NCBI GenBank assembly: GCA_030390025.1
Contig: CM059431.1
Location: forward strand, 145,516,001 to 145,580,000
Direction: 5' to 3'
Source: Squalus acanthias
Taxonomy: Eukaryota
Length of the DNA stretch: 64,000 bases
The notes beneath the pieces were generated by a model. The model made no database searches. It saw only the letters and a list, made by a program, of their open reading frames with translations, and was not told where the DNA came from. The position numbers and the translations under genes are program-made. Positions 30,661 through 44,100 of the stretch are shown here, piece by piece. Position 1 is the first letter of the stretch; every line of letters begins with the position of its first letter.

Positions 30661-31380
30661 GCCAGCGTAGATAGTACATGGGTGACCAAAAGGCAGAGCA
30701 AGGGCAGGAAGGTGGTGCAGAAATCCCCTGGGGTTGTCTCCCTTAGCAACAGGTTCACCGCCTTAGGTGCTGTTGTCGGGGGGGATGACTCATCGGGGGA
30801 AGGCACCAGCAGCCAGGCTCATGGCACCATGACTGGCTCTGTTGCAAAGAAGGGAGGGAAAAAGAGTGGCAGGGCTATAGTAATAGGGGATTCGATTGTA
30901 AGGGGAATAGATAGGGGTTTCTGTGGTCGCGACCGAGACTCCAGGATGGTATGTTGTCTCCCTGGTGCAAGGGTCAAGGATGGCTCGGCGCGGGTGCAGA
31001 ACATTCTGGAGGGGGAGGGGGAACAGCCAGTTGTCGTGATACATGTTGGTACCAACGACGTAGCTAAAAAAAGGGAAGAGGTCCTACAAGTAGAATTTAG
31101 GGAGTTAGGAGCCAAGCTAAAAAGTAGGACCTCGAAGGTAGTAATCTCTGGATTACTACCAGTGCCACGTGCTAGTAAGAGTACAGAGAACAGGATAGTT
31201 AGGCTAAATACGTGGCTTGAGCAGTGGTGTAAGAGGGAGGGTTTTAAATTTTTGAGGCATTGGAACCAGTTTTGTGGTAGGTGTGACTTATACAAAAGGG
31301 ACGGTCTACACCTGTGCAAAGATGGAACTGATGTTCTCGGGGTAATTTTTGATAAAGCAGTTCGGGAGCATTTAAACTAG
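30661..31380 (+). CDS. CR1 ORF1, SGNH/GDSL esterase-like domain (N-terminus missing)
   Basis: Motifs [27 protein letters not shown]; frame open from the insertion junction to TAG at 31378-31380. Confidence 0.9.
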
Positions 31381-34323
31381 TATGGCAGGGGGCTAGAAAC
31401 CTATGTAGTGAAATAGAGGAAAGTGAAAGGCAGTCAGAAATAAATGGTAAAAGGGTGAGGAACAAAAAACAAAGGGCCAAACTAATTCATAAAAAATGTG
31501 AGCATAGAAAAAGCCTGAGGGTTTTATACCTTAATGCGAGAAGCATCAGGAACAAGGTAGATGAATTAGCTGTGGAAATAGAGGTTAATAATTATGATCT
31601 AATTGGGATTACGGAAACATGGTTGCAGGGTGAGCAGGGCTGGGAGCTTAACATACAGGGGTATTCAGTATTTAGGAAGGATCGACAAAAAAGAAAGGGA
31701 GGAGGGGTAGCATTGCTGGTAAAAGAGGGGATAAATGCAATTGAAAGGAAGGATATTAACTCAGTTAATACAGAATCTATATGGGTGGAGCTAAGAAATA
31801 GCGAGGGGCGAAAAACATTAATAGGAGTGGTATATAGGCCTCCAAATAGTAAAATAGAGGTTGGGGAGGGCATCACGAGGGAAATTAGAGAAGCGTGCAA
31901 TAAGAGCACAGCTGTCATCATAGGTGACTTTAACTTACATATAGATTGGAATAGCCTAATCAGTAAAAATAATGAGGAGGAGAAATTCCTTGAGTGTTTA
32001 AGGGATGGTTATCTGGATCAATATGTCGAGGAACCAACTCGGGAACAGGCTATATTGGACTGGGTACTGTGCAATGAGAAGGGACTAATTAGTAATCTTG
32101 TTGTACGGGGACCCTTGGGTAAGAGCGATCATAACATGATCGATTTCTCACTCGAAATGGAGAGCGAAGAAATTGACTCAGAGACTAAGGTCCTGAATTT
32201 AAACAAGGGGAATTATGATGCCATTAGACGGGAACTGAGTAGGTCTGATTGGACAACGTTCCTGGGAGGACTGGAGGTAGATAAACAATGGCAAGCATTT
32301 AAAGACAGAATGACAAAATTGCAAAAATTGTTTATACCAATCTGGCATAAAAGGAAATCTAAAAAGGTGACTCAACCGTGGATAACAGGGGAAATTAGAG
32401 ACAGCATAAAATCCAAAGATAGGGCATATAAAATAGCCAAAAAAAGCGCCAGAGCGGAAGATTGGGAACAGTTTAAGATAGAGCAAAGGAGGACAAAGGG
32501 CTTAATCAAGAGGGGCAAAATAGCTTACGAAAGCAAGCTGGCGGAAAATATAAAAACTAACTCCAAAAGCTTTTATAAGTATATCAAGAGGAAAAGACTG
32601 GTGAAAACCAAAGTTGGCCCATTGCAGTCAGATACGGGGGAATATATAACGGGAAATAAGGAAATGGCAGACCAACTAAATGCATACTTTGGGTCCGTCT
32701 TTACGAAGGAAGACACAAAAAACCTCCCTGGGATATCGGGAAAAATAGGGACATTAGCAAAGGAGGAACTGACGCAAATCAATATCTCTAAGGATATGGT
32801 GTTAAGGAAGCTAAAGGGATTGAAGGCGGACAAATCCCCAGGGCCTGATAACATGCATCCTAGGGTACTGAAGGAGGTGGCCCTAGAGATAGCGGATGCA
32901 CTAAGTATGATTTTTCAGAATTCATTAGACTCGGGAACAGTGCCCATGGATTGGAGGGTAGCTAACGTTACCGCACTATTCAAAAAGGGGGGTAGGGAAA
33001 AAGCAGGTAATTACAGACCTGTAAGCCTTACATCAGTTGTGGGCAAAATGCTGGAGTCCATCATTAAGGATGAAATAGCGGAGCACTTAGCAAATGGGGA
33101 CAGGATAGGACAGAGTCAACATGGATTTACAAAGGGTAAATCGTGCTTGACTAATCTATTGGAATTTTTTGAGGGAGTAACTGGTAAAATAGATGGGGGA
33201 GAGCCAGTAGATGTGGTGTACCTGGACTTCCAAAAGGCCTTCGATAAGGTCCCACATAAAAGATTAGCAGGGAAAATTGAAGCTCATGGGATAAAGGGGA
33301 AAGTATTGACGTGGATAGAGAACTGGCTGTCAGATAGAAAACAGAGAGTTGGAATAAACGGCTCATTTTCTGAATGGCAGGCAGTAACAAGTGGGGTACC
33401 ACAGGGATCTGTCCTGGGTCCCCAGTTGTTCACAATTTACATTAATGACCTGGATCAGGGAGTCGGATGCAGCATTTCCAAATTTGCAGACGACACTAAA
33501 CTAGGAGGGGGGGGTGGGCTCAGAGGAGGAGACCAGGAAGCTCCAGAGCGATTTGGACAGACTGGGTGATTGGGCGGATAAATGGCAGATGCACTATAAT
33601 GTGGACAAGTGCGAAGTTATCCACCTTGGGTGCAGGAACGGGAGGGCAAATTATTATTTAAATGGCAATAAATTGGGAGAGGGGGAAGTACAGAGAGACC
33701 TGGGTGTTTTTGTACACCAGTCACTGAAGGCGAGCATGCAGGTGCAACAGGCGGTCAAGAAGGCAAACGGTATGCTGGCCTTCATAGCAAAAGGGTTGGA
33801 ATACAGGAACAGGGATACCTTGCTGCAGCTGTACAGGGCACTGGTGAGACCACACCTCGAGTACTGTGTACAGTTTTGGTCGCCTCATCTGAGGAAAGAT
33901 GTTCTTGCCATGGAGGGGGTGCAGCGGCGATTCACCAGGCTGATACCAGGAATGGCGGGATTGACCTATGAGGAGAGACTATGTAGTTTAGCGATGTACA
34001 CACTGGAGTTTAGAAGATTGAGAGGGGACCTCATAGAAGTGTATAAAATTCTGACAGGTCTAGACAGACTAGATGCAGAAGGAATGTTTCCCTTGGCGGG
34101 TGAGAACAGAACTAGAGGACATAATTTAAGGATAAGGGCTAAACCATTTAGGACAGAAATGAGGGGGAATTTCTTCACTCAGAGGGTGGTGAACCTGTGG
34201 AACTCATTGCCACAGAGGGCAGTGTACGCCAGCTCATTAAATATATTTAAGAGGGAATTAGATATATTTCTACAGGCAAAAGGGGTTAAGGGTTACGGAG
34301 AGAAGGCGGGGACGGGATACTGA
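31356..34323 (+). CDS. CR1 ORF2 (APE endonuclease + reverse transcriptase) with one +1 frameshift in a G8 run at 33507-33514
   Basis: YLNARS, ITETWL, YRPP, GDFN, SDHN (APE); [20 protein letters not shown] (RT). The frame opens after TAA 31353-31355; first in-frame ATG is at 32136. Confidence 0.92.
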
Positions 34324-34911
34324 ATTGGAGGATCAGCCATGATCTCATTAAATGGCGGAGCAGGCTCGAAGGGCCGGATGGCCTACTCCTGCTCCTATCT
34401 TCTATGTATCTATGTATCTATGTAAATTTCTATATTTCAATAAGATCACGTCTCATTCTTCTAAACTCGAGAGAATATAGGCCGAGTCTACTCAGCCTGT
34501 CCTCATAGGACAATCTCGCATCTCACTAATCAGTCTGGTGAACCTTCGTTACACTCCCTCTGTGGCAAGTACATCCTTCCTTAGTTAATGAGACCAAAAC
34601 TGTAACAATATTTGAGGTGTGGTCACGCCAGGGCCCTACATAATTGCCGTAAAACTTATTTACTTATAACCAAATCCTCGTGTAATAAAGGCCAACATAT
34701 CATTTGCTTTCCTAATTGCTTGCTGTACCTGCATGTTAACTTTCAGTGATTCGTGTACAGGGACACCCAGGTCCCTCTGAACACCAACATTTCCCAATCT
34801 CTCACCATTTAAAAAATACACTGCTTTTCTATTTTCCTACCAAAGTGGATAACTTCACATTTCTCCGCATTATATTCCATTTGCCTTTTTCGTTCCCATT
34901 CACTTAGTCTG

Positions 34912-35105
34912 TGTGGTAACACAATACAGCTTCCTGTGACTCGAACTTTATTGCATCACTTCCTGTGATTAGTCCAGGATAAATACTGGACTGATCAGTT
35001 GGATCCTGGAGAGGCATAGAGTAAGACCTCTTCTGTATGTAGCACCTTTTTAGTTGATTAAAGCTTACTTTAAGTTCACCACGTGTAAGGCTCATTCTTA
35101 CGACA
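34912..35105 (+). repeat. 5' LTR (194 bp)
   Basis: TGTGGTAAC...CTTACGACA; 4 differences from the 3' LTR by my count. Confidence 0.97.
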
Positions 35106-35183
35106 ATTTAATCAACTTTGAAAAAATTCGCACTCAAACTTTTTGGACGAACTCGGAACTAAGGATCCAGGGAATCACCCATC

Positions 35184-38100
35184 ATGGAAAACATCCTTAA
35201 ACCATCGCGTCTTGAATTGGACCCAAACACCCCAGCAGCCGGTAAGGTGTGGAAACACTGATATCGCACGTTTGACAATTTTCTTGAATATTGCAAGGCT
35301 GATGATGACTCAAAGTTGCGGATACTCATCAACTGTGTCACCCCGAATGTATTTCAGTATGTGCAGGAATGGGGCAGTTACGAGGAGGCAATTCGGACGC
35401 TTAAGAGACTATATACTAAGACACCGAATGAGGTCTATGCCAGACATCTACTAGCTACAGCCCAACAAGGGCCGGAGGAATCCATTGATAAATTCCTCCA
35501 AGAGCTTCGCAGACTTAGTATGGACTGTAACTTTCAGGCGGCCTCAGCTGAGCTGTACCGTGAAGAAATGATCCGTGATGCTTTCATCTGCGGGCTTGCC
35601 TCCCCATTTATACGCCAGCGTCTACTGGAAAGTAAGACACTTGAGCTTCAGAGAGCTTATGACATGGCTTGCTCTCTAGATCTGGCAAAAAGAAATCCAG
35701 ACCTTTATACAGTGCCCAGACCTCGGTCTACTGCCTTAACTACAGTCAGGCAATTTAAGAGGCCACAGGTGAACTCTATTAGGGAGGTCTTTATCCCTGA
35801 CGATCAATCTGATGACTTCACTGATGAAGAGGATGATGACCCCACTGTGGCAGCCTCTTGGCAATCTAAGAAATGCTTCTTTTGTGGTGATGAGTTTCAC
35901 CCTCGGAAATTCTGCCCTGCTCGCAATGCGTTTTGCAGTCATTGCAACAAAAAGGGTCATTTTGCAAAGGTTTGCCTATCAAAAGCCTCTACGAGGGCAT
36001 ATCAAGCTAAGTCCTACCGAACTGCCCCTGTAAGGGCATATCAAGATGTTCCAGCTAAAATCTATCGTGCTTCCTCTTGGGTTTCCTCTCGAAGAAACAC
36101 ACCAAGAGTTTCAGCCACTCTTTGTGCAACGACACCAATTACAGCTGCTTGTCCTCAGAACCTATTCCATGCAGCTACAAAAGCATCAATTAATGGACAT
36201 ACTTTAGATGCCTTAATTGACTCAGGTAGCACTGATAGTTTCATTAGGGAACAGATTGTTGCAGAGTTAAAGCTACATGTTTTCCCATCGGACCAGGCAG
36301 TTGCGATGGCTCAGTCATCACTTAATACCAGAATTTCTGGCTTTTGTATGGTTGAAATAACACTTAATAGTCACAGGTATCCCTCCACCCGGCTTTCGGT
36401 GCTCAAGGACTAATGTAGTGATCTTATCTTAGGGCTGGATTTTCAAAAGCAGCATAAGAAGCTCACCATTGAGTTCGGCAGATCCAAACCTGAACTCACT
36501 ATTTCTAATATACGACCTCGATTACCGTTCTGTGCATTGTCAGCAGCTTTACTGGATGAACCCACACTGTTTACCAGTATCCCTCCTCGATGCAAACCGA
36601 TTATAACAAAGTCACGACGTTTCAGTCTGGAAGACCAGCCTTTTATTGCGGCTGAGATTTCTCGGCTTTTAGCAGAGGATATCATCGAGCCTTGTTCGTC
36701 GCCATGGCGCACCCAGGTCGTTATTGTTAAGAACCATCTACAACCTCACAAGAAACGGCTGTGCATTGACTATTCACAGACCATCAATCAATATACGGAC
36801 TTGGACGCATACCCATTGCTGCGCATCGATGATATGGTTAATAAACTGGCTGAGTACACGGTGTTCTCAACATATGATCTGAAAAGTGCCTATCATCAGG
36901 TACCCTTGAAGGTCTCAGACAAGCAGTATACGGCCTTTGAAGCCAATGGACGGCTGTATAAATTTCGTCGCCTCCCCTTTGGGGTCACTAATGGAGTGGC
37001 TGTCTTCCAGCGAGCAATGGATGACCTGGTCAAACAGGAAGACTTGAAGGATACGTTTCCTTATCTGGACAATATTACTGTCGCAGGTCGCAATCAGCGG
37101 GAACATGACGCCAATCTCCAACGATTTTGGGATGCACTCCAGCACCGCAATTTGACATTAAATGCGGCTAAATCCATTGAGTCACAGTCAACCATCAACA
37201 TCCTTGGCTATTGTGTGGGCAATGGCATCATTAAACCTGACCCTGAAAGGCTTCGCCCACTCCAAGAACTCCCGCCACCTAAGAATCCGGCCTCCTTGCG
37301 CCGGGCCCTCGGCCTGTTTGCATACTATGCTAAATGGATTCCTAACTTCTCGGACCGAATCCAACCTCTACTGAAGGCCAGCACATTCCCACTAGACACA
37401 GCGGCTGTTGCAGCCTTTAACCTCCTGAAAAAACAGTTGGAGAAAGCGGCTCTTCACTCCATCGATGAGAGTCTTCCTTTTGTTGTTGAGTGTGATGCCT
37501 CGGAGGTGGCGATCTCGGCCACTCTGAATCAGGAAGGTCGTCCGGTGGCATTTTTGTCCAGGACTTTTCAAGGGGCTGAGCTACATTATCCTCCAGTCGA
37601 GAAAGAAGCTACAGCCATCATAGAGGCAGTACGGAAGTGGAGTCATCTCCTAGCTCGCCAGCACTTTACCTTAATCACGGACCAGCGATCGGTCGCCTTC
37701 ATGCTCGATAATCGAAAACGGACCAAAATTAAAAATAATAAAATCCAGCTTTGGCGGCTGGAATTGGCCTCTTTTGGTTACACCATCCACTATCGACCTG
37801 GCAAGGAGAATGTGGCTCCGGATAACCTCACACGAGCATTCTGCTCCGCCATGGCACCCTCTACGCTCGTAGACATCCATGATGGGTTGTGTCATCCGGG
37901 CGTTACTCGCATGCTACATTTCGTGCGGTCCCGAAATCTCCCAATCTCTACCGGTGATGTAAAGAAGATGTGCTCGGACTGCAGAGTCTGTGCGGAATTG
38001 AAACCTCAGTTTTTCGGCCCCTCGGGTGGTATACCCAAAGATGCGACCCAGCCAACGCAACGGCTTAGCATCGATTTTAAGGGGCCGTTGCCCTCTTCAA

Positions 38101-39140
38101 CTCGCAACACTTATCTATTGACCATGGTCGATGAGTATTCCCGTTTTCCGTTTGCCTTTCCCTGCCCCAATATGCTGACGACCACGGTTATCAGCTGCCT
38201 TGAGCAGGTATTTGCTTTCTGTGGCATGGCATCCTATGTTCATTCGGATCGTGGCCCTTCTTTTATGTTAGGAGAACTCAAGGCCTATCTCTCGGAACGG
38301 GGTATTGCTGCCAGCAAAACGACGCCTTATCATCCGGTCGGGAATGGGCAAGTCGAGCGTTATAACGCTATCATCTGGAATGCGGTACGTCTGGCTTTGA
38401 GATCTCGGGGCCTACCCAACCAGCAATGGGAAGCAGTACTTCCAGACGCATTACACTCCACACGGTCCCTCCTTTCGACCGCCACAAATACGACGCCTCA
38501 TGAACGGTTCTTCCGATTTCAGCGTCGCTCATCCTATGGGATATCTCTCCCGTCGTGGCTGACTACACCGGGACCAGTGCTACTCCGAAGATATGTCTGG
38601 GCGTCTAAGAATGACCCCCTGGTAGATGAGGTTGAGCTCACTCACGTCAACCCTACCTACGCCTATATTCGGTATCCTGACTTTCGGGAATCTAACGTGT
38701 CATTGAGGGATCTGGCTCCCTGCCCGCCGAAACATAGAGGGACATCCGGGGATGATATTGTACCAGGCACATCTCTGGGCTCGCCAGGTGCCTCTCATCA
38801 CGATCTGGATCTGACGCTGGCTGTTACCTCACTCCAGCGTGCCGACCTGGGGCAGACTGACTATGAGCCCGTCGGGGCTCGCACGTGCAGCCACGATCCA
38901 CCCCGTACCGTACGCTCGGAAACGGATCTGCCACAGCCCTGCCCGACACCCGTTCGGGCACCAGTACACAGTCAGGATCGTCCTGACCCCTCACAGAGGG
39001 GGCTGGATCACTCGGACTCTGGTCCACGGCCCGCGGCGGGTAAACGGGCTCGGGGCCCTCTACCGCTACGAGAACTCAAACGGGTGCGGCTCTCCCTCGT
39101 CCAGCGGCTACAAAATGGAGGGAGCATCCCGGCCTCCTAA
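35184..39140 (+). pseudogene. Single-frame gag-pol polyprotein with two nonsense mutations (TGA 35259-35261, TAA 36411-36413)
   Basis: ATG 35184 (MENILKPSRLELDP) is in frame with ORFs 35316 and 36537; CFFCGDEFHPRKFC and CSHCNKKGHFAKVC knuckles, LIDSGS protease, LPFG and YLDN RT, ECDAS RNase H, HPG/CxxC, DFKG, HSDRG, GQVER integrase. Confidence 0.93.
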
Positions 39141-39160
39141 TCTTTTGGGGGGGTGGAGAA

Positions 39161-39354
39161 TGTGGTAACACAATACAGCTTCCTGTGACTCGAACTTTAT
39201 TGCATCACTTCCTGTGATTAGTCCAGGATAAATACTGGACTGATCAGTTGGATCCTGGAGAGGCATAGAGTAAGACCTCTTTTGTATGTAGCACCTTTTT
39301 AGTTGATTAAATCTTACTTTATGTTCACCACGCGTAAGGCTCATTCTTACGACA
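39161..39354 (+). repeat. 3' LTR (194 bp)
   Basis: Direct repeat of 34912-35105, preceded by the PPT. Confidence 0.97.
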
Positions 39355-39682
39355 GCCTGTCTATCTCCCATTGAAGCCTCCTTGCATCCTCCTCACAACT
39401 TACATTCCCAGTCAGGTTTATATCATCAGCAAACTTGAATATATTACATCTGGTCCCCTCATCCAAATCATTGATGGAGATTGTGAATAGCTGAGAACCA
39501 AGCACTGATCCTTGCAGTACCCCACTAGTTCGAGAATGCCAACCCGAAAATGACACGTTTATTCCTACTCTCTCTTTTCTGTCCATTAACCAATCCTCAA
39601 TCCATGCTAATATATTACCCCCAATCCAATGAGCCCGAATTATGTTTAATAAACTCTTGTGTGGCACCTTATCGAATGCCAG

Positions 39683-42450
39683 TTCTCACCTAAGTTATTG
39701 GTGGAATAGGATCGAGGGACTGAATGGCCTCAAATTGATCCTATTAGTCTATGGTTTTGTATTACCGATATTTCTATCGTGTGTTCATTATCTGGAAACA
39801 ATATTAACAATCTATCACATACACGCTCTTTCTAAACTGTTATAAGATGAATAAACCTTTCTCAAGTAATTAGAACTAGCAGAACCACTGCCATTTGGAA
39901 CGAGTGAAAGGCTTCACTAGAACTTTGATGTCTGAGGTGTAACAGGAAATGAATGTGACAGGTAATTTGTTGGGCCAACAGTAAATGTGAATCTTACAGG
40001 AAGTCATGGAGTCATAGAGTTATACAGCACAGGAAGAGGCCCTTCAGCACATCGTGTCCACGCCCGCCACCAAGCCCTGTCTATTCTAATCCCATTTTCA
40101 AGCACTTGGTCCGTAGCCTTGTATGCTATGGCGTTTCAAGTGCTCATCTAAATGCTTCTTGAATCTTTTGAGGGTTCCTGCCTGTGCCACTGTTTCAGGC
40201 AGTGAGCTCCAGATTACAACCACCTTTGGGTGAAAACGTTTTTCCTCAAATCCACTCTAAACCTCCTGCCCCCTACCTTAAAGCTATGCCCCCTTGTTAT
40301 TGACCTTGTAATAAGTGGAAAAGTTCCTTTCTATCTACCCTATCTATGCCCCTCATAATTTTGTACACCTCAATCAGGTCCACCCTCAGCCTACGCTGCT
40401 CTAAGGAAAACAATCCCAACCTGTCCAGTCTCTCTTCATAGCTGAAGCGCTCCAGCCCAGGTAATATCCTGGTGAATATCTCTCTGCAGAATCCTCTGCA
40501 GCCTCTCCAATGCAATCACATCCTTCATATAGTGTGGCGAACAGAACTGCACACAATATTCCAGCTGTGGCCTAACTAACGTTTTGTACAGCTCCATCAG
40601 AACCTCCCTGCTCTTATATTCTATGCCTCGGCTAATGAAAGCATGTATCCCATATGCCTTTTTAAACATCTTGTCTACCTGTCCTGCTGCCTTCAGGGAT
40701 CTATGTACATGCACACCAAGGTGCCTCTGATCCTGTATCCTTTCTAGGGTTCTACCATTCATTGTGCATTCCCCTGCCTTGTTAGTCCTTCCAAAATGCA
40801 TCACCTCACACTTTTCAGGGATCAATTCCATTTGCCACTGTTCAGCCCATCTAACCAAACCGTCTTTATCGTCCTGTAGCCTAAGGCTTCCCTCCTCGTT
40901 ATTTACCACTCCACCAATGTTCGTGTCATCTGCGAACTTACTGTTCATACCTTCTACATTCATATCTAAATCATTAATGTAAACTACAAACAGCAAAGGA
41001 CCCAGCACCGATCCCTGCGGTACAACACTGGACACAGGCTTCCAGTGTGCTTTACAAACAAGAATTAATTCATTACTAGTGAATCTTGATGGCATTGCTC
41101 AAATTCAGACTGATGAACTGGAATGTCTTTTCACTGCGTCTGTAGGAAGAGGCCAGAACGGCAGGCAGACATGTGCAAATGTTGAAACATATGCGAACAC
41201 CTGGAGCAATATTCACTTTTCAAAAAGTGGATGAAACAGGATTTATTAATATAAGAAGCATTATTAAACCATGGCAAGAGGACGTATTACGAATTATGTG
41301 TATCCATATAACCTACTGCTCCTAAACAACAGCTTTATAATCTTATTTTAATATTGTGGACATTGTATTAAAACTGTTCAGAAGATCTCCCTACTGCTGG
41401 ACTGCCGAATACACAGACAGGAGTTTACACTGAATGTTTCACGGTCTTTCGGATATAAATTGTAGCCAAGGCCTCTTGTACTGAGATCTGACAGATTGTT
41501 ACCCTGGCAGCAGAGGAAGTCACTCGGCGAAAATAACTGAACACGGAAGTAACAAAACCAACATCACCTGTTCAAATTTAGTTAAGAACATTAACCCTGA
41601 ACATTCAGACAGTTTTTCTAACCATGAAGCTGCGATTCCAATAATGGAATTTTTACACCACCAGAGCTGACACTGCGGGTTTACAGAATCCACCGTCAGT
41701 TCCAGCTGTACAGAACATTAAGCAGCGCGGCATCTACAGAAATACATCAATAAATAGTCACATTTTTAGAAATAGACCCCGTCACCTCTGAAAATCTAAT
41801 TGTCATAAACTATCTAAATCTATTACTGTTAACAGTGACCAATTAAATTGCTGCCAAAATACTGAATTCGATGGCAAAACATTTGGCAGTCACCTTCTTT
41901 ACACATCGGAATGTTATAACATTTGAATTTACAGGTCATTTCATGAAACTCCAGTTCCTGTTTAAAGGACTGAAACATCTTGTTTTTATTTCCTGTTAAA
42001 ATAAGATCCCCACAATAATCGCGTGACTGTATTGCAAGAGCAGGGAAATAAATCTAAAAAGTATGAGACAAACACCGCTCTCAGTTTAACAACAAGAATC
42101 CTCGGCCGACGCAGGGAGCTGGATCAGGAGACCACAGGGCATCAGCTCCCGATCACATTGCTGCACGGGAAGCCAGAGATGGCCACACCATGGACTGATT
42201 TACTTCACTTGACGCTGTACCACGTGATTCGCCAGTTTGTCACCACCCCACACCAACACCATAAAGCATCCGTACAACGAGCAAGCCATTCCTTTCGAAG
42301 TCATCACCATTGCGGGGGTTGGGGACGGGGCGGTGCTACCGTAATGTCACACCATTCAGTGCAACTCAGTAAGACACATCAAAAGTTCCACACAAAACTG
42401 TCCAAGAAGGCAAAGTTTTAAAAATAAAGATTTCAGTGTTTGGCGGCACA
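39683..42450. repeat. Triplicated segment, copy 3
   Basis: Same landmarks as copies 1 and 2; lacks the terminal CR1. Confidence 0.88.
40005..41043 (-). mobile_element. 5'-truncated CR1 (different subfamily) inserted in copy 3
   Basis: ORF 40436-41095 [19 protein letters not shown]...KFADDT; tail GTCATAGAG; flanks GGAAGT| and |AGTGTGCTTT versus the empty site GGAAGTGTGCTTT at about 27911. Confidence 0.92.
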
Positions 42451-42723
42451 TCATTCGAAAGACGACACATTCGACAATGCAGCAGTCACTCAGTCATTTC
42501 TGATTATGTGCTCAAAACCTTGGTGTGGATCTTGAAACTACGACCGTTAGACTCGAGAGTGATTCTGGGCTTGTCCGGGACAAGGAATCATGGTAAGGTA
42601 AGACGACCAAACAGCGCAATGTATCAGAACGTTTCGAGCTATTCCCCAGGCTCGCTCACACACGAAAATCCCTCAAATAAACACAGTTCGTCTGTTGCCT
42701 TTCATTCAGGCCCTTGCTAGCAG

Positions 42724-43130
42724 GTGATCAATAATACATTGGATGTAGCTGTAGTTTTAATATATTTCAATTCCCCATGCCTGTAGTGATCAATATTACA
42801 ATTGTGTATACCTGTAGTTTTAACATATTGCAATTCCCCATGTCTGTGTGATCAATATTACAATTGGATATACCTGTAGTTTTAACATATTGCAATTCCC
42901 TATGTCTGTGTGATCAATATTACAATTGGATATACCTGTAGTTTTAACATATTACAATTCCCTATGTCTGTGGTGATCAACGTATCACAATAGGATATTT
43001 CTGTAATTTTTATTTAATTATCATCCCTGATGCCTGCAGTCATCACGGTATCACAATCCACTTCCTGCAGTTATTAAACTATTACAATTCCTCATGCTTG
43101 CAGCTACAGTTATATTACAATTCTACAAAT
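42724..43130. repeat. 62-bp AT-rich tandem repeat, about 5-6 copies
   Basis: GTGATCAA starts at 42724, 42786, 42848, 42910, 42973. Confidence 0.9.
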
Positions 43131-43726: not shown

Positions 43727-44100
43727 CACAACTCTCAAAGCCCTCAGCCCCGGGGCTGTGGTTTAGTTTGGTGTTTTTCCTCACAGTTAATGTCCGGGCA
43801 CCTGAAAATTCTGCATTTTCACTCATTTTGGCAGAAGTACGCCATTGTCTCTTCAAACTGCAGAATAACCCACACAAACCTCCAAGCCTGGAACATCCCG
43901 TGGATTATGACTCGGTTCAATACATTCACTGGGGTTTATATCCCGGACACTTCCCTGTATTATGACACTGTTCAGTACCTTGCCTGGGGTTTATATCCCA
44001 GTCCATCCCGTCTATGATGACCCTGTTCAGTAACTTCCCTGGGGTTTATATCCCTGGCCATCCCTTGTATTATGACCCGTTTCAGTACATTCCCCGGGAG
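43727..44100. repeat. Paralog of 23041-23450 with ~48-bp GGGGTTTATATCCC repeats
   Basis: GGGGTTTATATCCC at 43931, 43986 and 44041; upstream similarity to 23041. Confidence 0.75.

Follow-up and report, generated by a model that had tools for sequence, protein, structure and literature searches.

A 64,000-nt stretch of the Squalus acanthias genome (the window) carries a Gypsy element that raises the question of what primes its reverse transcription, for no TGG follows the 5′ LTR, as the first-pass annotation of the locus had stated and as we confirmed. The element occupies positions 34912–39354 on the forward strand and is a broken copy. Its two LTRs (34912–35105 and 39161–39354), delimited by comparison with each other, are 194 nt each, 98% identical, and bounded by TG...CA. 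A polypurine tract (39147–39160) precedes the 3′ LTR, and the 5-bp target-site duplication at 34907–34911 and 39355–39359 matches at four of five positions (GTCTG/GCCTG); together with the LTR termini, these are Ty3/Gypsy hallmarks. A single gag-pol frame (35184–39140, forward strand), which in-frame stops at 35259–35261 and 36411–36413 interrupt in this copy, encodes a double CCHC knuckle, protease, reverse transcriptase (RT), RNase H, and integrase, and has no chromodomain. The domain order from protease to integrase is that of Ty3/Gypsy elements, and the best solved-structure match of the protein was Ty3 Gag-Pol (E 1.6e-94). The RT catalytic motif, at 37064–37075, reads YLDN; its second aspartate is replaced by N in approximately one-third of the lineage described below, although the family is young and mobile. 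An older LINE copy encloses the element, leaving CR1-type fragments on both sides (31356–34323 and 39347–41234). Elsewhere the window holds minisatellites at 42723–42971 (62-nt units) and 43894–44098 (55-nt units), a region of higher G+C and strong strand skew at 1–24000, probably simple or tandem repeats, and a tRNA-Asn-like ARAGORN call with anticodon ATT on the minus strand at 57944–58018, probably a SINE or pseudogene.

The LTR itself offers a candidate primer. One spacer base past the LTR end (35106, placed by LTR-end alignment), a candidate primer-binding site (PBS) at 35107–35117 is the exact reverse complement of an 11-nt LTR arm at 35052–35062, exactly as had been claimed. None of 1000 dinucleotide shuffles of the window LTR reached this match, the shuffle maximum being 9. 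The first-pass annotation had extended the duplex to 12 nt on the basis of the 3′ LTR. That LTR, whose arm copy lies at 39301–39311, does read AGTTGATTAAAT at 39301–39312, but the 12th pair is private to the 3′ LTR of this copy, and its position is G in the first 100 listed of the 3978 LTRs of the family. Similarly, the proposed T5/A5 helix past a 3-nt bulge can be drawn in the window copy but is not general among relatives. An Rfam search returned no match at the leader, and whole-leader folding of the window element was weak by itself (z −1.1 to −2.3), as would be the case if the complementarity had arisen by chance in A/T-rich sequence.

We therefore turned to relatives, among which the first-pass annotation had called for a covariation check. 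Homology searches provided 75 loci, 29 of them with a supported gag start; L051 has no LTR, and the other loci are fragments. An inverted repeat of 9–18 nt with the geometry seen in the window was present in 27 of the 29, and the remaining two (L035 and L046) lack it in the leader, the matching arm being located at the 3′ ends of their contigs. Nineteen elements have two LTRs, so that the LTR end could be defined independently; they represent about nine lineages, three of which come from the S. acanthias genome. None of the 19 has TGG, and all retain the self-complement as an exact match of 11–19 nt to at least one LTR, within 3 nt of the LTR end and, in most, beginning one base past it. At a control position 22 nt downstream the self-match was only 3–7 nt, and in no element did any of 1000 shuffles reach the observed self-complement (for L033, the shuffle used a mis-picked 3′ LTR).

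Pairing was then compared position by position in 24 representatives. These carry 18 distinct 11-mers, and 306 of the 312 pairs at positions 1–13 are Watson-Crick pairs, vs 251 in the best of 10,000 permutations. Pairing was found in 21 of the 24 at position 13, 13 at position 14, 12 at position 15, 17 at position 16, and at most 6 beyond. Only 11 of the representatives have two LTRs; the LTR ends of the other 13 were located by a CA-N-TTT pattern, so the evidence from this set is partly circular. The permutation test (0/10,000) refutes chance complementarity, against which the shuffles and the compensatory changes described below also speak, and we give that explanation practically no credence. 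The same 11-mers bear on the idea that a host RNA, either a tRNA fragment or another small RNA, is the primer, the match to the LTR being incidental. For copia lineages, priming by half-tRNAs has been described (PMC6317226), but here such an RNA would need to end in AAA instead of CCA, each of the 18 distinct 11-mers matches its own LTR, and compensatory changes occurred within one genome, where a TGG-type element (L158) self-matches over just 3–4 nt. Host-RNA priming is thus largely refuted by the covariation, and we consider it very improbable.

Next, the family was examined in the S. acanthias genome. The 3.7-Gb genome contains 2138 LTR-PBS junctions of the window family, corresponding to about 2,000 copies. 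Both LTRs could be read in 27 of 40 copies fetched, and the LTRs of a single copy differ by only 0–3 bases, which points to a very young family. A pattern search that left the spacer and PBS open but favored some downstream alleles gave 376 matches; of the first 100, 99 share an identical 12-base spacer-PBS sequence and one has a 1-base insertion. A subfamily, B, is 95% identical to the window family, and a second family (family 2), with at least 678 junctions, is 69% identical to it. Both LTR subfamilies were present in four sequencing runs, as judged from assembled contigs only, among which no transcript start, transcript end, or poly(A) junction was found. Two structural variants were also observed: a second copy, 39 nt long, of the LTR start within the terminal part of pol in 9 of 34 readable copies (L209–L248; equivalent to window 39118–39130), which marks a sub-lineage, and a tandem array of the window family (G000:C1:562311-575086) with shared LTRs at 4247-nt spacing, which recalls Tf1 tandem insertions.

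Covariation was also evident inside this genome. In subfamily B, an extra A at the 5′ edge of the arm is accompanied by an extra T in the PBS in all 11 copies, giving an arm of 12 nt as compared with 11 in the window copy and about 13 in most relatives. In family 2, five of the first 100 junctions listed carry a variant PBS base, for which a compensating LTR base was predicted beforehand. Of 46 variant copies found, 44 were fetched, and the predicted base was present in at least one LTR of 37; six had only the common base in the LTR or LTRs that were read, and one was an aberrant insertion. By contrast, the compensating base occurred in 0 of 36 main-family copies. The 37 compensated copies are one evolutionary event, not 37. 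Since the compensating change creates a CpG, most discordant LTRs of the variant copies would fit CpG decay. L040 shows a further double change in PBS and arm, and one lone PBS mutation and three lone arm mutations were uncompensated, as expected for such lone changes. One copy (L175) combines main-subfamily flanks and two arms of the common type with the variant PBS, consistent with either point mutation or priming in trans.

We also compared the sequence around the 3′ end of the arm. Across the 24 representatives, the arm ends in AAA followed by (G/A)C, and a hairpin opens right after it in 17 (null mean 9.6, maximum 15 in 200 shuffles). In the window, the AAA^G junction falls at 35062–35063, and the hairpin directly after it (35063–35075) is weak (−0.5 kcal/mol). 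The ATTAAA that had been annotated at 35057–35062 is confirmed and lies within the arm. Among the representatives, AATAAA or ATTAAA stands at the arm 3′ end in 16 and is missing in eight, and a poly(A) hexamer was found downstream of the arm in just three. This arrangement is what a regulatory duplex would produce, that is, one that masks only the poly(A) signal of the 5′ LTR, while another RNA serves as the primer. Covariation would be expected equally under that scheme, and TATA-like boxes upstream (see below) would set the arm well inside R. However, the eight arms without a hexamer are paired all the same (two of them in mutated copies), and in two of the eight a hexamer lies in the unpaired loop. 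Furthermore, all 19 two-LTR elements lack an alternative primer site, and the fixed register one base past the LTR, the mutable base, and the breakpoints at the arm 3′ end described below would be left unexplained. We therefore regard a purely regulatory duplex as improbable. Masking of the poly(A) signal, as the first-pass annotation had suggested, may be a side benefit of the duplex but not the whole explanation, because eight of the 24 arms have no canonical hexamer.

Aberrant insertions provided traces of the pairing and of the junction. In six places in the genome, representing five insertion events (L249, L250, L251/L252, L253, and L254), each flanked by a 5-bp duplication, the LTR end, spacer, and PBS run straight into inverted LTR sequence from upstream of the arm. 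These fold-back cDNA insertions show that, during replication, the PBS end had paired with the arm. The minus-strand segment of L250 terminates at the arm 3′ boundary, where a cut is predicted. In addition, window-family LTRs shortened to 48–140 nt were found in five insertions, four of which break at a 5-nt microhomology spanning the predicted cut, although eight such microhomologies are possible; the fifth, a solo LTR, is broken elsewhere. The four cut-site deletions come from at least two lineages and may not all be independent. Four mini-elements (L258, L259, L262, and L266; 292–1742 nt) have LTRs of 60 nt, the deletion in each reaching the predicted cut, and internal rearrangements that all differ. 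In two of the four cut-site deletions, the inverted segment includes the arm while both LTRs lack it, indicating that the segment was copied from another molecule. No fold-back insertions were found for subfamily B, and a search of family 2 with a single pattern returned no short-LTR insertions.

The inverted segments of L249, L251/L252, and L259 extend into U3 or the internal region. Such sequence is found only at the RNA 3′ end, and this would be explained if the arm copy of the 3′ LTR, which has the same cut junction, were the normal primer through end-to-end RNA pairing. However, identical junctions would result if plus-strand strong-stop DNA mis-transferred to the 3′ arm as a decoy. The fold-back insertions fit a long primer as well as such mis-transfer and do not separate the two. 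Other observations argue against routine use of the 3′ copy: strong-stop ends at the cut, in L250 and in the short LTRs, require cutting of the 5′ copy; a stop at 13 nt would not result from a long primer; and the mutable base shows no preference for the T that the LTR would template (3/38). Priming by the 3′ copy therefore seems to us a poor candidate for the normal route.

If plus-strand strong-stop DNA ends at the primer 5′ end and gains untemplated bases there, new mutations would be expected to recur at the base immediately beyond the duplex. In both subfamilies of family 2, homoplasy is highest at this base among all variable alignment columns, and its alleles are near random on the tree. 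In the first subfamily, this hot base was A in 23, C in 7, G in 5, and T in 3 (38 copies of 44) and required 13 steps vs a shuffled mean of 14.2, ranking at the top of 1553 variable columns. In the second (33 copies), it was A in 24, G in 6, and C in 3 and required 7 steps vs a shuffled mean of 8.6, ranking at the top of 251. The same base varies among copies in two metagenome families too. The window family, by contrast, has no hot base, with T in 100 of 100 listed copies, and the variation seen 3 nt beyond that base largely tracks lineage (7 steps vs 16.5 shuffled; 39 copies). A search for a source of a 14-nt primer in this family gave 20 genomic matches vs 19 for the control, none of them LTR-like, and that candidate was rejected.

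The lack of TGG, the covariation, the compensatory change, the hot base in the sister family, and the breakpoints at the predicted cut, all of them features of genomic sequence, make it likely that the element self-primes, with the arm cut at its 3′ end and priming minus-strand synthesis. In the proposed pathway, the LTR arm of the transcript (putative primer, 35052–35062) would pair with the PBS one base past the LTR end, a step for which both pairing potential and covariation were demonstrated. The RNA would then be cut at the arm 3′ end, probably by the RNase H of the element as in Tf1, freeing a 3′-OH on the paired arm; this cut is suggested by the conservation of AAA^GC, by the hairpin beside it, and by where the aberrant insertions break. 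Strong-stop DNA would presumably extend as far as the cut and then transfer to the short repeat left at the 3′ end. Finally, plus-strand strong-stop DNA would copy the primer, regenerate the PBS from the arm, and end ~11–13 nt in with addition of untemplated bases, as the hot base in the sister family suggests.

The primer 5′ end may coincide with the capped transcription start, as it does in Tf1, or may arise when a longer leader is trimmed. A capped transcript 5′ end is compatible with the step in pairing at position 13 and with the hot base. TTAGTT is conserved at the arm 5′ end and resembles the initiator consensus. TATA-like boxes and L258 argue against a capped primer end and fit a longer leader. 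The boxes lie 84–85 and 103 nt upstream of the arm end in two families of the genome, with no fixed distance elsewhere. In the window, the TATA-like box GATAAATA was confirmed at 34978–34985, from which a start near 35007–35010 would follow. In L258, the inverted segment stops at the equivalent of 35007, ~30 nt past the GATAAATA box, and is followed by two bases found in neither template, a single case that hints at a transcription start near 35007. A primer built by splicing was considered and rejected; a conserved T-rich...AG stretch resembles a 3′ splice site, but in many families the pairing continues past the AG and on into the T run, and inspection by eye gave just one donor-like site, 33 nt upstream. 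We tentatively entertain a more specific version of self-priming, which we consider possible but rather unlikely in its entirety: transcription would start 40–60 nt upstream (near 35007), and the primer would be an internal piece of 11–13 nt, cut or trimmed at the duplex-hairpin junction, that overlaps the poly(A) signal. A single duplex would then serve both to prime DNA synthesis and to mask this signal at the 5′ end, in a self-priming system evolved independently in a widespread animal Gypsy lineage.

To place the element, we analyzed its homologs. The best 120 are 54–88% identical, and the named ones come from shrimp, copepod, cnidarians, mussel, tunicate, nematode, and shark. Neither a Chromo nor an SH3_Tf2-1 domain was detected in the window protein or in any of 28 full-length relatives, and no chromodomain was detected in the 14 outgroup proteins scanned. 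A tree was built from RT-RNase H sequences, 126 of which were long enough among the window and the 150 retrieved. The relatives cluster in it as 66 tips with a long stem (support 0.98), separate from 60 unnamed Gypsy sequences. Judged by its protein, the element belongs to a Gypsy lineage of animals that is deep and has no chromodomain. The lack of this domain and the length of the stem lead us to infer that self-priming in this lineage would be of independent origin. The lineage carries two CCHC arrays in gag, and Mag elements likewise have two zinc knuckles there. The label "Mag-like" given earlier is tentative and is based on this double knuckle. Mag elements use tRNA primers, whereas the window lineage has no tRNA PBS, and a Mag-type PBS motif gave 0 matches. 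Motif searches in part of the supplementary files of three papers returned no named relatives, and viral contigs contained no relatives. The best BFVD match was Aedes aegypti To virus 1 (35% identical), and ESM Atlas matches were unnamed gag clusters. Nine contigs of prokaryote metagenome-assembled genomes (L097–L105) contain these animal retrotransposons, most likely through contamination.

Self-priming has been proven only in Tf1 of fission yeast; it is regarded as a trait of Tf1/sushi chromoviruses and predicted for a plant copia lineage. If the present reading is correct, a deep chromodomain-less lineage found in cnidarians, molluscs, crustaceans, tunicates, a nematode, and a shark self-primes, and tRNA-independent priming would have been invented repeatedly in animals. 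Self-primed elements would escape the 3′ tRNA fragments described as targeting the PBS (PMC7472051), and this may bear on the thousands of young copies. The combination of hot base and aberrant insertions also offers a purely genomic way of mapping primer ends in any high-copy family. We found no literature on self-priming in this lineage, but an earlier description is possible, as most subscription papers and Repbase reports lie outside the coverage of the search. In the sources consulted, self-priming is ascribed to Tf1/sushi and Tcn1 and is predicted for copia TAR (PMC6317226, PMC3601003, PMC4600332, PMC10085805, PMC5006619, PMC11042837, PMC5341516, PMC6934838, PMC6238403, PMC2774666, PMC3185545).

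Among known systems, the lineage resembles Mag (A, B, and C clades; MolGy3 and MolGy11, in the accessible part of PMC6238403) in being metazoan and without a chromodomain, and differs from it in an RT motif that is often YLDN or YVDN. For plant Tcn1 (Gypsy) and TAR (copia; Houba, Osr-1), self-priming is likewise predicted lineage-wide from PBS-LTR complementarity, and TAR shows the signature outside chromoviruses, according to the accessible text of PMC6317226. These elements differ from ours in host and lineage, Tcn1 being related to Tf1/sushi and TAR a copia lineage. In Tf1/sushi elements, there is no tRNA PBS, a short LTR segment is complementary to a site beside the LTR end, and a cut frees the primer (accessible parts of PMC4600332, PMC10085805, and PMC5341516); Tf1 RT adds untemplated bases at cDNA ends (accessible parts of PMC11042837 and PMC3185545). 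The present elements share with Tf1/Tf2 of Schizosaccharomyces pombe, Tj1, Tosmo1-3, and Tf1/sushi the lack of a tRNA PBS and the complement to their own LTR, and they would likewise need a cut. Unlike Tf1/sushi chromoviruses, however, the lineage has no chromodomain (0/28) and has a double CCHC knuckle. In a crude longest-helix test of nine elements, a counterpart of the Tf1 pretzel duplex 3′ of the PBS exceeded the null in none, and a U5-end duplex exceeded it in three. Unlike in Tf1, the primer overlaps a poly(A) hexamer in most families and is only putatively the transcript start, the duplex comprises about 13 nt plus one spacer base, and a hairpin after the cut takes the place of the 3′ duplex of the pretzel.
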